From Escherichia coli (GTDB lineage: Bacteria; Pseudomonadota; Gammaproteobacteria; Enterobacterales; Enterobacteriaceae): a DNA stretch of 64,000 bases. The stretch lies in the NCBI RefSeq assembly GCF_024700885.2, contig NZ_CP117016.1; one strand, given 5' to 3'. Below, one piece after another: positions 2,661-64,000 of the stretch. Numbering within the stretch: position 1 is the stretch's first letter; each line of letters starts with the position of its first letter. Under the pieces are notes generated by a model. It saw only the letters and a program-made list of their open reading frames with translations. It was not told the origin of the DNA and did not search any database. The position numbers and the translations under genes were made by a program.

Positions 2661-2717
2661 ATAGCCGCCTTGTTGTAATGACAACATTTTGCGGCTATTC
2701 TTGAATTGTTGATGGTT

Positions 2718-2778
2718 CAAGATTAGCCCCCGTTCTGTTGTCAGGTTTTACCTCTCAACGTGCGGGGGTTTTCTCTTT
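2718..2778 (+). ncRNA. rdl: Putative Rdl antisense RNA (antitoxin), copy 2; ends approximate
   Basis: Same hairpin+T-run as copy 1, in the second repeat unit. Confidence 0.4.
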
Positions 2779-18902: not shown

Positions 18903-19616
18903 TGATGGTGGTGGGGGAAGGATTACTCAGCGCTGCGCGCTTCACCCTTCGGGTCGTTGCCTGCGGCAACGCTTTCTCGCTGGCGCTCGAGTCGCACCTT
19001 GGTCGAAGCTTCTCATCCTTCCCCGCATGGGCAGAATATTTAATTGCGGATTCGTTTGAGAGTTCACGGACTTTTGAAAAGTGATGGTGGTGGGGGAAGG
19101 ATTACTCAGCGCTGCGCGCTTCGCCCTTCGGGTCGTTGCCTGCGGCAACGCTCTCTCGCTGGCGCTCGAGTCGAACCTTGGTCGAAGCTTCTCATCCTTC
19201 CCCGCATGGGCAGAATATTTAATCGCGGATTCGTTTGAGAGTTCACGGACTTTTGAAAGTGATGGTGGTGGGGGAAGGATTACTCAGCGCTGCGCGCTTC
19301 GCCCTTCGGGTCGTTGCCTGCGGCCACGCTCTCTCGTTGGCGCTCGAGTCGAACCTTGGTCGAAGCTTCTCATCCTTCCCCCGCTTGGGCAGAATATTTA
19401 ATTACGGATTCGTTTGAGAGTTCAGGGACTTTTGAAAGTGATGGTGGTGGGGGAAGGATTACTCAGCGCTGCGCGCTTCGCCCTTCGGGTCGTTGCCTGC
19501 GGCCACGCTCTCTCGCTGGCGCTCGAGTCGAACCTTGGTCGAAGCTTCTCATCCTTCCCCGCATGGGCAGAATATTTAATCGCGGATTCGTTTGAGAGTT
19601 CACGGACTTTTGAAAG
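18903..19616. repeat. rtT: Four tandem ~178-bp repeats of the tyrT-operon distal region (rtT/tpr-type), each starting with a copy of the tRNA-Tyr 3' end
   Basis: Units begin at 18903, 19081, 19259 and 19438 (period 178-179 bp, >95% identical); each starts with gtgatggtggtgggggaaggatt, which is the reverse complement of the tRNA-Tyr acceptor/T-arm 3' end. Confidence 0.85.
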
Positions 19617-19619
19617 TGA

Positions 19620-19704
<85 letters not shown>

Positions 19705-19738
19705 AGGGGTAATTCAAATTTTGAGGTAATGCTTGAGA

Positions 19739-19823
<85 letters not shown>

Positions 19824-49873: not shown

Positions 49874-50042
49874 GATGGCAGCCTCCGCGATGAATTTGAT
49901 TAACTCACCACCGAGGTTTTCCACGACCATAAGGGTGGTGAGACGTACAGGGGTGGAAATACCGGTCATCACGGAACCCGGCCAGCCTTGCGGCTGCCCT
50001 GCACGCCCCACCATAATGCGAATGTGGCTGTGCTTAACGCAT

Positions 50043-50064
50043 AAAAAAACCGCCTGAGCGCGGT
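50043..50064 (-). terminator. Rho-independent terminator downstream of the DicF-like sRNA
   Basis: On the minus strand, aaccgcgctcaggcggtt hairpin followed by TTTTTTT. Confidence 0.55.
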
Positions 50065-50352
50065 TATGCGCCGTGAATGATTTCGGGTTTCCACGCCCGG
50101 CACCCGTTTTATGAGGTGCAGGTGCACTATAATTCCACCCGTTCTGGTTTTCAATAGCTACATTCAACATTTTCTCTACCTTTCATCACCGAAGTGAACT
50201 TTGTTGATGCGGTGCCTGGTGCCTCCAGGTGATGTTAACCAGTTAACAATTAACGCCGGATACAGAGAATCCACCCATAACACTGTTTTTGGTTTTAACT
50301 GTTCCGCGTGCGCTGAGCCGCATTCACCGCATCACAAAATTCACTTTAAAAA

Positions 50353-50405
50353 GGGCGGCAGAGCAGTCACGGAGTAAAACTGATACCGCCAAAAGTCACC
50401 AGAAA
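50353..50405 (-). ncRNA. dicF: DicF-like sRNA (cell-division inhibitor sRNA of Qin-type prophages)
   Basis: Minus-strand 53 nt TTTCTGGTGACTTTTGGCGGTATCAGTTTTACTCCGTGACTGCTCTGCCGCCC differs at one position from the K-12 DicF sequence as I recall it; followed by a T-run. Confidence 0.65.
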
Positions 50406-56352: not shown

Positions 56353-56991
56353 ATGAAGATGAAAAACATGTCTGAAGTGTTGACCCAAGAAAAGCTTATT
56401 TTTGTTGCCCAGAGACTAAATGCCCTCGCGCAGTCAGGCCTGACCTATTCAAAAGACGTCTTTGACAAGGAACGCTATGAAGCCTTGCGTGAAATTGCCG
56501 CTGGACTGCTGAGTTCGCAGTTTGATATTAGCCGCAATGATTTGTTTCATGTATCGGAAACGGGTTACGCGACGCCCAAAACAGATGTGCGTGCGTTTAT
56601 CCTGCGTAATAATCGTATTCTGATGGTGAAAGAGGCTGCAGATGGATTATGGAGTCTTCCTGGCGGATGGGCAGATGTTGGAGATACACCTTCTGAAGCT
56701 GTGCGTCGAGAGGTCGAAGAAGAAACCGGATTAAAAGTCAGAGTGACTAAACTATTGGGAGTTTGGGATCGTAATCTTCACGGCCATCCGCCTTTACCCT
56801 GGCATGTTTACAAGCTGATTTTTCTCTGTGAAGAAGTAGGTGGCAGCCTGTCAATCAGCCATGAGTCACTCGATGCTGATTTTTTTGATGTCAACGACCT
56901 GCCTGAATTGTCGCTTTCAAGAATTGTGCCTGAGCAGATTGCTGTCAGCCTGAGAGTAGCGAAAGGTGATGAAAAAACATGGTTTGATTAA
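56353..56991 (+). CDS. NUDIX hydrolase with Nudix_N-type N-terminal domain (prophage cargo)
   Basis: Nudix box GGWADVGDTPSEAVRREVEEETGL (Gx5Ex7REUxEExGU); N-terminal ~60 aa resemble the Nudix N-terminal extension of ADP-ribose pyrophosphatase-type enzymes. Start may be 56359 or 56368. Confidence 0.8.
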   Translation: MKMKNMSEVLTQEKLIFVAQRLNALAQSGLTYSKDVFDKERYEALREIAAGLLSSQFDISRNDLFHVSETGYATPKTDVRAFILRNNRILMVKEAADGLWSLPGGWADVGDTPSEAVRREVEEETGLKVRVTKLLGVWDRNLHGHPPLPWHVYKLIFLCEEVGGSLSISHESLDADFFDVNDLPELSLSRIVPEQIAVSLRVAKGDEKTWFD

Positions 56992-57020
56992 CTTTCTTCT
57001 GCAACCATTAAGGAATGGCA

Positions 57021-57659
57021 ATGATATTCAACGCTAAGGGTTTTTTATTCGATATGGACGGTACGCTGGTTGATTCAACAGCCGTAGTGGAAAGCGTCTG
57101 GAGAGATTTTTGTGCAGAATACGGTCTTGATACTCAGGCTGTGATTGCTTACGCACACGGGCGGCAAACGATTGATACACTGACGCATTTTATTGGTGCA
57201 GGTGAGAAAACCAATAAAATCGCGGCCTCACTCGAAGAGGTTGAAATCAACACGACAGAAGGCGTTACTGAAGTAAAAGGGGCCGCTGCACTCTTATCAA
57301 AACTGCCACCGGATAGCTGGGCACTTGTTACTTCTGCAGGCAGAATGCTTGCCGAAAACAGGATGAAAGCGGCTAATCTCCCCTTACCCATAGTAATGGT
57401 GTGTGCAGAAGATGTAATGACGGGAAAACCAAGTCCCGAGGGTTACATCAAAGCAGCTTTGGCTTTGGGCCTTGAGCCTGGTGAATGCGTGGTATTTGAG
57501 GATGCATCTGCGGGTATAAAAGCAGGGCTGGCAAGTGGAGCTTCGGTAATAGCTGTTCAGCCTGACGCTCTGGGATCATCTGAAGCCCATGCCGTCAGCG
57601 AGCTGTCTGACATTATGGTCAAGATTTCCGGAGAACGTTTCAATATCATCTGTGGTTAA
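57021..57659 (+). CDS. HAD-superfamily phosphatase (beta-phosphoglucomutase-like subfamily)
   Basis: Motif I FDMDGTLVDS, motif II VTSAG, motif IV EDASAGIKAG; ATG at 57021 is 6 nt after AAGGA; 29 bp downstream of the Nudix gene. Confidence 0.8.
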   Translation: MIFNAKGFLFDMDGTLVDSTAVVESVWRDFCAEYGLDTQAVIAYAHGRQTIDTLTHFIGAGEKTNKIAASLEEVEINTTEGVTEVKGAAALLSKLPPDSWALVTSAGRMLAENRMKAANLPLPIVMVCAEDVMTGKPSPEGYIKAALALGLEPGECVVFEDASAGIKAGLASGASVIAVQPDALGSSEAHAVSELSDIMVKISGERFNIICG

Positions 57660-57922
57660 TCACGTTACACAATACGCATCAATGGACGCTGAGTAGTTCG
57701 CGAGTTTTAAACTTCCAACGTCCGCTTTTCGCTCAAAGCGGACTAGAAGGTTAGCTTGCGTCGGACTTGGCGTATTTAAAGAAGTGCTGGTGGTGACTGG
57801 TTGTTGTGTTCCATTTCTACAGAACAAAATCACAGAAACTATACCCAATAGTTGTATTGAATCACTGACGAGACAGCCTCATATTTATCAGGACTGGTGT
57901 ACGTCCAATACAGGAGGTTGTG

Positions 57923-58012
57923 GTGCTGGTTCTCAAATGTGCGCTGGCTATTGCTGCTGTAATGGCAATTTATTGCCTTGCTGTTGTTCTTATGGATCGC
58001 CTTTCTGATTGA
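57923..58012 (+). CDS. Candidate small hydrophobic peptide (29 aa) with strong Shine-Dalgarno
   Basis: AGGAGG at 57912-57917, then GTG at 57923 (or 57920); translation MLVLKCALAIAAVMAIYCLAVVLMDRLSD has a single predicted TM helix and charged tail; not in the ORF track (<60 aa). Confidence 0.3.
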   Translation: MLVLKCALAIAAVMAIYCLAVVLMDRLSD

Positions 58013-58223
58013 TTTCATATTGGCGAGGTGACGGGAGTTAAGTAGAATGGCTGCGGGTGCTTGAGGCTATCTGTCTCAGGCATGAACACCAAAGGCAGAT
58101 AGAGAAAAGCCCCAGTTAACATTACGCGTCCTGCAAGACGCTTAACATTAATCTGAGGCCATATCTATGCTCTACACACGTAGGTTAGCCTCTTACGTGC
58201 CGAAAGGCAAGGAGAAGCAGGCT

Positions 58224-58379
58224 ATGAAGCAGCAAAAGGCGATGCTAATCGCCCTGATCGTCATCTGTTTAACCGTCATGGTGACGGCACTGGTAACGAG
58301 GAAAGACCTCTGCGAGGTACGAATCCGAACCGGCCAGACGGAGGTCGCTGTCTTCACAGCTTACGAACCTGAGGAGTAA
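58224..58379 (+). CDS. hok: Hok/Gef-family type I toxin (51 aa), near-identical to HokD/RelF
   Basis: MKQQKAMLIALIVICLTVMVTALVTRKDLCEVRIRTGQTEVAVFTAYEPEE; the in-frame upstream extension in the track (from 58167) is not the toxin start. Confidence 0.85.
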   Translation: MKQQKAMLIALIVICLTVMVTALVTRKDLCEVRIRTGQTEVAVFTAYEPEE

Positions 58380-58447
58380 GAGACCCGGCGGGGGAGAAAT
58401 CCCTCGCCACCGCTGATGTGTCAGGCATCCTCAACGCACCCGCACTT

Positions 58448-58474
58448 AACCCGCTTCGGCGGGTTTTGTTTTTT
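58448..58474 (+). terminator. Rho-independent terminator after hok
   Basis: aacccgcttcggcgggtt hairpin followed by TTGTTTTTT. Confidence 0.65.
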
Positions 58475-58546
58475 CTGGTCGTTCTGGTTTACAATCCATC
58501 CGTCAGCCTGAACAACTGGCACCTGCTGCGCCAGCAGAGAAAACAG

Positions 58547-62757: not shown

Positions 62758-62833
62758 GGCCCTTTAGCTCAGTGGTGAGAGCGAGCGACTCATAATCGCC
62801 AGGTCGCTGGTTCAAATCCAGCAAGGGCCACCA
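62758..62833 (+). tRNA. Prophage tRNA with CAU anticodon (Ile2/lysidine-type, ileZ-like; Met not excluded)
   Basis: 76 nt folding into a cloverleaf by hand: acceptor GGCCCTT/AAGGGCC, D-stem GCTC/GAGC, anticodon loop CTCATAA, T-arm GCTGG-TTCAAAT-CCAGC, 3' ACCA. Confidence 0.8.
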
Positions 62834-62933: not shown

Positions 62934-63010
62934 GCGTTGTTAGCTCAGCCGGACAGAGCAATTGCCTTCTAAGCAATCGGTCACTGGTTCGAATCCAGTA
63001 CAGCGCGCCA
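62934..63010 (+). tRNA. Prophage tRNA-Arg (UCU)
   Basis: 77 nt: acceptor GCGTTGT/ACAGCGC, D-arm TAGCTCAGCCGGACAGAGCA, anticodon loop CTTCTAA, T-arm ACTGG-TTCGAAT-CCAGT, 3' GCCA; related to argU-type tRNAs. Confidence 0.8.
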
Positions 63011-63474: not shown

Positions 63475-64000
63475 ATACATATCTGGATTATCACCGGTTA
63501 CGGTAAAAAGTGATTGCTTACTGTTTTTGTGAATGGCATTGCAGCAGCCGGATAATGTCAGTGCTGGCTGACGGTGTGCTGGTGGCGGGTGTGGTGGTTG
63601 CTGCTTTCCCGTTGCTGAAAAAGAAAACGCCAGACTGTTAGCCGGGTATCAGTTAGCGGGAGAAATTTTTAAATACTTCACAATTCAGGCGGTTGACTGT
63701 TGTCTGGTTTGCGGGGAGTTTGTTAAAAGAAACTGGCATGGTGAATCCCCCTGTGCGGAGGGGCAATCAGCGAGTAGGTATATGGGATAATCGCGGATTC
63801 AGGTGCTGGTACTGAATTCACCGGGAGGCACCCGGCACCATGCAATGGCACATAGCGCCACTCTCCAGCCCCTCTCCGGAGGGGCTGTTTATATTGATTT
63901 TGTCAGATGTGAGTAAACTCCTTATGGACTTTGTTGTTTTAGCCCATAAGGACATATTTGCAGAGTGCAACGGTTATTAAAGCATTCATTCAATACGTTA

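Follow-up and report, generated by a model that had tools for sequence, protein, structure and literature searches.

In a 64,000-nt stretch of Escherichia coli DNA (contig NZ_CP117016.1 of assembly GCF_024700885.2; hereafter the window), positions 58020–58475 very probably hold an intact hok/mok/sok type I toxin–antitoxin cassette. It comprises the toxin gene hok, the frame mok, which starts upstream of the hok start and overlaps hok, and the antisense RNA Sok on the opposite strand. A lambdoid E. coli prophage carries the cassette in its nin-like region, as a self-contained module that has a promoter and a terminator of its own. An initial annotation, made from the DNA sequence, had proposed a hokD/relF-type type I locus in a prophage nin-like region; this assignment held, and the locus proved more complete than had been claimed. 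The Hok protein matches the Pfam family HOK_GEF (PF01848) with 82.6 bits (E 1.4e-23, cut-off 22). It shares 50 of its 51 residues with K-12 HokD, in agreement with the near identity noted before, and the gene is annotated as hokD at the identical locus of E. coli MLI114. The in-frame extension from 58167, previously suspected of a mok-like role, is a 70-aa open reading frame (ORF; 58167–58379) with its own Shine-Dalgarno (SD) sequence, and it shares 63 of its 70 residues with MokW as annotated in phage 933W. The mok SD and the mok ATG are both invariant among relatives.

The leader of the hok mRNA was identified by comparison with the hok/sok family, a check that the initial annotation had itself suggested. 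Positions 58055–58229 (+) match the Rfam model RF01794 over its full length (model positions 1–157 of 157) with 114.7 bits and an E-value of 9e-27, the gathering score being 59. Reference loci scored 118.3 (hokC), 113.5 (hokW), 109.7 (hokB), 87.2 (R1-type) and 84.4 bits (hokE), and the same Rfam search gave no RF01794 leader match for hokD of the K-12 prophage Qin. RF01794 carries the name of the ‘sok’ antitoxin. Since its hits fall on the hok-sense strand in the window and in every reference locus (including our loci L003, L004 and L088), where sok is annotated opposite, the model describes the hok mRNA leader with Sok encoded opposite and not the Sok RNA, and the family name is misleading. 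The model starts at 58055, 7 nt past the −10 hexamer of a promoter that reaches 9 of 12 matches in a sigma-70 consensus scan; this 5′ end (GGGUGCUUGAGG) aligns with the leader 5′ ends of hokC, hokB and R1 hok. In 67 unique relatives the −10 hexamer is ∼90% conserved despite differing upstream flanks, and the element presumably serves as the hok promoter.

On the minus strand, positions 58175–58099 align end to end with K-12 sokC, and 58175–58105 correspond to sokW of 933W. The 3′ end of Sok would accordingly be placed at 58105 by the sokW annotation or at 58099 by the sokC annotation. The sokW probe YO-592 of Takada et al. (PMC8621323) ends at the equivalent of 58175. The predicted RNA consists of a single-stranded 5′ tail (58175 to ∼58161), a long terminator hairpin (58160–58108) and a U-rich tail; the 77-nt form folds with −31.9 kcal/mol (z = −4.76) and is complementary to the mok SD and ATG. 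Its start lies 7 nt downstream of the −10 hexamer TAACCT, and both the −35 and the −10 hexamer are nearly invariant among relatives. We placed this promoter by homology to sokC and sokW, by conservation and by a published mutation: in the ‘pro-less’ sokW construct (primer YO-421) a hexamer identical to the −10 of the window is replaced, which unmasked HokW toxicity (PMC8621323). A Sok-like antisense gene is thus predicted on the minus strand, as had been expected, but the interval initially given, 58150–58220, holds the promoter and the 5′ third of Sok, with the body of the RNA lying further left.

We folded the full mRNA (58055–58473) without constraints and obtained a minimum free energy (MFE) structure of −170.8 kcal/mol (z = −7.46 relative to shuffled sequences). 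In this in silico structure the translational activator element (tac) at the 5′ end pairs with the fold-back inhibitory element (fbi) in the 3′ untranslated region (UTR) over 12 bp and one bulge. Conservation of the pairing was followed in 70 sequences: an R1-type hok, K-12 hokB, 933W and 67 unique prophage relatives. Over the whole window-derived structure 96.4% of cells are paired, compared to ∼40% when partners were slid by 1–3 columns, and 37 pairs show both-side changes, compared to 5.2 in shuffles and 10–17 in slid controls. The tac/fbi helix reaches 98.8% pairing in this set, hokB and the R1-type hok included, with one A-U replacing a G-C pair. The elements ucb and dcb (downstream complementary box) are defined from work on R1 hok (PMC9841398). 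In the predicted closed form ucb (58109–58113) pairs with the mok SD (58155–58159) and sequesters it; dcb is invariant in all 70 aligned sequences, hokB and R1 included. The leader hairpin is kept in 98% of cells, with compensatory changes at two pairs (AU:62, GC:5, UA:2). It accounts for the leader inverted repeats reported in the initial annotation, which form a 10-bp helix at 58067–58102; these repeats are not the fold-back element, as had been assumed, since fbi lies at 58429–58441 and pairs with 58055–58066. The 3′ UTR hairpin at 58387–58408 is 99.7% paired with both-side changes at four pairs and, by analogy with R1, would be the protective 3′ end of the processed hok mRNA. When the 5′ 60 nt were folded in isolation, an alternative stem between tac and ucb was obtained. 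Enforcing this open stem costs +11.3 kcal/mol in the presence of fbi and +2.5 kcal/mol after a cut past the 58387–58408 hairpin; these modelled energetics of fbi removal would agree with the published switch from inert to translatable mRNA (PMC9841398). The features of the cassette are collected in Table 1.

Table 1. Predicted elements of the hok/mok/sok cassette, in window coordinates
Feature	Position	Strand	Basis or remark
hok/mok mRNA promoter (putative): −35 TTGGCG 58020–58025, 17-nt spacer, −10 TAGAAT 58043–58048	58020–58048	+	
Full-length hok mRNA (predicted), ∼420 nt, spanning GGGUGCUUGAGG (inferred 5′ end) to the terminator U-run	58055–58475	+	
tac (translational activator element), mRNA 5′ end	58055–58066	+	pairs with fbi in MFE structure
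Conserved leader hairpin, 58067–58076 with 58093–58102, 10 bp	58067–58102	+	MFE; RF01794 consensus structure
Sok antisense RNA (predicted), ∼71–77 nt, 5′ end 58175	58099–58175	−	homology to sokC and sokW
ucb/anti-SD box AAGCCCC, core GCCCC 58109–58113	58107–58113	+	invariant in relatives
mok Shine-Dalgarno GAGGC, 8 nt before mok ATG	58155–58159	+	aligns with R1 mok SD GAGG
mok frame, 70 codons, in frame with hok	58167–58379	+	ORF list; MokW identity
Sok promoter (putative): −35 TTGCCT 58210–58205, 17-nt spacer, −10 TAACCT 58187–58182	58182–58210	−	
dcb (downstream complementary box) GCCUC	58188–58192	+	complementary to mok SD 58155–58159
hok SD GGAG	58211–58214	+	precedes hok coding sequence
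hok toxin coding sequence, 51 aa, MKQQKAMLIALIVICLTVMVTALVTRKDLCEVRIRTGQTEVAVFTAYEPEE	58224–58379	+	Pfam match; HokD identity
TACG motif at Tyr47 codon, candidate TadA A-to-I editing site (Tyr to Cys)	58362–58365	+	
3′ UTR hairpin, 9 bp, GAAA loop	58387–58408	+	MFE
fbi (fold-back inhibitory element) CCUCAACGCACCC, complementary to tac, one bulged C	58429–58441	+ (3′ UTR)	
Intrinsic terminator of hok mRNA, stem 58448–58465 and T-run	58448–58475	+	terminator scan

Judged by these alignments, the best comparator for the cassette is hokW-sokW of the Stx2 phage 933W and the Sakai prophage Sp5, rather than K-12 hokD, and the cassette appears to be an allele of hokW-sokW as well as the full-length counterpart of the truncated K-12 gene. 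The hokW-mokW-sokW locus (AF125520) shares 93% nucleotide identity over 92% of the cassette, and its leader scores about the same in the Rfam search. Both Sok promoter hexamers are identical, mokW is likewise in frame with its toxin gene, and an 18-nt extension of the terminator hairpin is common to both antisense RNAs. The two loci differ by six substitutions in the 16-nt Sok 5′ tail and in the mok start region, and at the Hok C-terminus (TAYEPEE in the window, VDYESEK in HokW). Furthermore, the window has a GC-rich intrinsic terminator of its own where 933W diverges after fbi, and its cassette lies in the nin region, whereas that of 933W is found near the right end of the phage genome. The type of system is therefore already known from a close, experimentally characterised allele: hokW-sokW is a demonstrated type I toxin–antitoxin locus in which toxic HokW is neutralised by sokW in a partly RNase III- and Hfq-dependent manner (PMC8621323).

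The relation to hokD (relF) of the cryptic K-12 prophage Qin is of a different kind. Beyond the toxin, the 3′ UTR, fbi and the terminator are identical in sequence, but homology to the window is confined to the part from ∼58210 (the hok SD) onwards; in K-12 the gene is preceded by relBE, with relE directly upstream, and lacks the promoter, tac, ucb, the mok start and Sok. The relBEF-type layout, a leaderless hok behind relBE, is not found in the window, where genes for a NUDIX and a HAD hydrolase lie upstream and the leader is present. Because the K-12 homology begins only at this point and the leader match is absent, the window appears to hold the full-length form, and K-12 hokD would be a decayed, 5′-truncated remnant of a very common prophage cassette. 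The K-12 hokD mRNA has been reported to be edited A-to-I by TadA at the homologous Tyr codon, changing Tyr to Cys (PMC5630033). The corresponding TACG motif occurs in the window and in 68 close relatives, and by this analogy the Hok Tyr47 codon is a candidate editing site.

Among chromosomal loci, K-12 hokC (gef)/mokC/sokC has the most similar leader, with nearly identical tac, leader hairpin, ucb and mok SD and with mokC in frame with hokC. In contrast to the window and sokW, sokC lacks the 18-nt hairpin extension, and fbi is missing from hokC because IS186 interrupts its 3′ UTR. The hok/mok/sok locus (parB) of plasmid R1 has the same architecture with all named elements (tac, fbi, ucb, dcb, mok, Sok), and the R1-type locus matches the same Rfam model. 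It differs in being plasmid-borne rather than prophage-borne, in a mok whose frame, by the coordinates in PMC9841398, is not that of hok, and in a distantly similar toxin: HokW, near-identical to the Hok of the window, is 44% identical to R1 Hok.

Of 5,426 complete E. coli genomes, 3,415 or more carry a copy, annotated ‘hokD’, that spans 80% or more of a 551-base query across the locus; the query is 100% identical in E. coli MLI114 and in strain 600029. Per genome there are a median of 2 and at most 10 matching places, not all of which are full cassettes. In close relatives on IMG/VR prophage contigs the full cassette is present in 76 of 80, and the remaining 4 show the K-12-type truncation. 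Similarity among relatives is limited to ∼58020/58036–58467, its right edge coinciding with the intrinsic terminator, and the flanks vary widely on either side. The cassette behaves as a mosaic, self-contained ‘moron’ module.

The rest of the cassette is >90% conserved, but one stretch of 22 nt (58160–58181) is hypervariable, with at least 16 discrete alleles in 77 prophage copies. It is made up of the opening codons of mok, the recognition tail at the 5′ end of Sok and the nucleotides separating the −10 hexamer of Sok from its start; around it, mok SD, mok ATG and Sok −10 are fixed. This pattern could reflect diversifying selection for the specificity of Sok/hok pairing, such that co-resident copies do not neutralise each other, an explanation that we put forward tentatively and consider somewhat doubtful. 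In each of the four two-copy IMG/VR genomes the alleles differ, which is not statistically significant, as four genomes are too few and ∼88% of random copy pairs would carry differing Sok-tail alleles anyway. If the explanation were true, each prophage would be individually ‘addictive’, or able to kill independently upon its loss or induction, and the Sok tails as specificity determinants would offer a natural system for studying how cross-talk between co-resident prophages is avoided. Variation also extends to the reading frame of mok: it is in frame and ends with Hok in 61 of the 77 relatives (60 with 70 codons, one with 73), whereas in 13 of them it is out of frame with hok and stops after 19 codons, owing to a 2-nt deletion after the ATG, for which a change close to the Sok −35 (GTGCC to GGACC...GGT) compensates. 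Loci with an out-of-frame mok include L063, L059, L027, L066, L017, L057, L043, L077, L042 and L074.

All parts of the classical R1 hok/mok/sok mechanism can be placed in the sequence of the window, and by homology with R1 hok/sok and hokW-sokW we propose that the cassette would operate in the same way. A stable mRNA of ∼420 nt would start at about 58055 and be inert in its full-length form, tac being paired to the 3′ UTR element fbi and ucb masking the mok ribosome-binding site. Slow 3′ trimming back to the 58387–58408 hairpin would remove fbi, after which tac would be free to pair with ucb and thereby release the mok SD. Translation of mok from 58167 would then open the hok start and lead to production of the 51-aa membrane toxin. 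In normal cells the short-lived Sok RNA, transcribed from the minus-strand TTGCCT/TAACCT promoter with its start at 58175, would prevent Hok synthesis by pairing over the mok SD and ATG, which would block mok translation and mark the duplex for RNase III. Once Sok synthesis stops, Sok would decay first and Hok would depolarise the membrane. This could be triggered when the element is lost, when an infecting phage shuts off transcription or when the prophage is induced. By analogy, candidate roles are stabilisation of the prophage, abortive infection and, as hokW is reported to do, assistance in lysis and release. R1 hok/sok causes post-segregational killing and, in work cited by PMC8621323, has been reported to reduce T4 plating.

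Several points weigh against reading the locus as a working system of this kind. Presence, homology and predicted pairing of each element were read from the DNA, while we infer transcription, processing, toxicity and biological role of the window allele from characterised relatives. The sigma-70 consensus scan missed the Sok promoter because TTGCCT/TAACCT reach just 7 of 12 matches; homology, conservation and the published mutation placed it within 58130–58230, the interval for which the initial annotation had suggested a promoter prediction. The plain MFE structure of the truncated RNA did not reproduce the published open conformation, as the mok SD stays paired, and since the open form is 2.5 kcal/mol less stable in the truncated RNA, the tac/ucb switch is only thermodynamically plausible in our model. 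The pairing and covariation figures for the 70 sequences carry the caveat that the structure was derived from the window itself and that most rows are close relatives. Finally, chromosomal hokA, hokB and hokC with intact elements showed neither post-segregational killing nor rifampicin activation, according to work cited in a preprint (bioRxiv 10.1101/2025.08.07.668861).

How much of this could be explained otherwise depends on which part of the system is doubted. If the hok of the window were silent and orphaned in the manner of K-12 hokD/relF, a toxin ORF lacking its own leader, mok and sok and expressed by read-through at most, one would expect the 98% identity to K-12 HokD and the resemblance of the downstream DUF968 and Q genes to those of Qin. 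This explanation, which the initial annotation had named as the case that would overturn its proposal, is very improbable and at the level of the sequence refuted: K-12 homology starts only at ∼58210, K-12 having relE upstream of that point, the RF01794 leader with its 114.7 bits has no K-12 hokD counterpart, and promoter, tac, ucb, mok SD and ATG as well as Sok promoter and body are all present and conserved. A cassette that is intact but physiologically inert, because Sok is in excess or the hok mRNA is not activated, would persist as a selfish or hitch-hiking element causing neither killing nor phage exclusion. The predicted open form of the truncated RNA, which is not the MFE structure, would fit such a locus, but we consider it unlikely: the nearly identical hokW-sokW is active, with loss of the Sok promoter leading to growth arrest, mitomycin C induction removes sokW in a RecA-dependent manner and yields HokW (PMC8621323), and the strong conservation of the regulatory elements in 67 unique relatives is hard to square with a dead locus.

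The same response to mitomycin C would suit a third explanation, in which the main role is help with lysis and phage release on induction and not addiction or defence, read-through from the early operon raising hok RNA and disturbing the convergent Sok promoter. The hokW-sokW locus contributes two-fold to the release of Sp5 phage (PMC8621323), hok in the window points in the same direction as the early operon that runs from replication to Q, and the cassette of phage Tritos occupies the same slot, with the replication genes on one side and DUF968/Q on the other. On the other hand, the read-through and interference mechanism is speculation, the 933W cassette sits at a different map position, and the cassette of the window has its own promoter and terminator, with terminator-like hairpins just upstream (57947–57977). 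We regard lysis help as the main role as possible, though rather less probable than not, and retain the intact hok/mok/sok cassette with the classical mechanism as the reading of the locus.

Its surroundings were taken from the MLI114 annotation and Pfam. Genes for a LexA-like repressor, a Cro/CI-family regulator and YdaT are followed by replication genes, DUF1627, DUF977, NUDIX, HAD, hok, a gene for a 92-aa protein, DUF968, RusA, Q, a methyltransferase and tRNAs. The initial annotation had equated this order with that of Qin (hokD-rem-ydfU-quuQ) with rusA inserted. The DUF968 protein is indeed 78% identical to K-12 YdfU and Q is 40% identical to K-12 YdfT/QuuQ, but the small gene that follows hok is not rem: its 92-aa product gave no BLASTP alignment to Rem and we dropped the label. 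Qin has rem after hokD where the window has this unrelated gene, and RusA is found only in the window. Because the 92-aa gene is unlike Rem and Q and DUF968 reach only the identities given, synteny with Qin is positional and only partly homologous, order and slot being kept and gene content in part.

For annotation, the locus should be described as a complete hok/mok/sok system (hokW-sokW-like) and not merely as ‘hokD’, since the mok frame and the antisense Sok gene (58175–58099, minus strand) are absent from the present annotation of the identical MLI114 genome; beyond correct annotation, the significance is small.

A few further observations concern the neighbourhood of the cassette. Directly upstream lies a hydrophobic 30-aa ORF (MVLVLKCALAIAAVMAIYCLAVVLMDRLSD; 57920–58012, +) that has an AGGAGG SD and stops 8 nt short of the hok −35. 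It has no Pfam match and is unannotated in MLI114 and in phages Tritos, Evi and mEp460. Other hok cassettes are preceded by the same frame, its hydrophobicity and C-terminal ...LMDRL(S/G)(D/N) being preserved even at 76% DNA identity, and the product may be a small membrane protein that accompanies hok. The NUDIX hydrolase (with a Nudix_N domain) and the HAD-family hydrolase form an adjacent pair at 56353–57659 (+), between the replication genes and hok, and look like metabolic cargo in the nin-like region. Within the cassette, an isrK match at 58388–58469 (27 bits, gathering score 50) was rejected as below threshold and attributable to chance or to a generic hairpin-plus-terminator, and weak Rfam matches to sR55 and ceN48 in the region were rejected likewise. 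On the immunity side of the prophage, the C4 antisense RNA (49931–50018), isrK (50043–50119) and DicF (50353–50404) were found on the minus strand, each exceeding its Rfam gathering score. The prophage genes for Q and the DNA methyltransferase are followed by two tRNA genes (62758–62830 and 62934–63007, +), which the identical genome lists as Ile and Arg, and by the small RNA STnc100 (63707–63896, +). Elsewhere in the window we found four RtT repeats with tRNAs at 18906–19823 and, in its chromosomal part, two rdlD antitoxin RNAs of ldr/rdl type I repeats at 2173–2238 and 2709–2774 (+).

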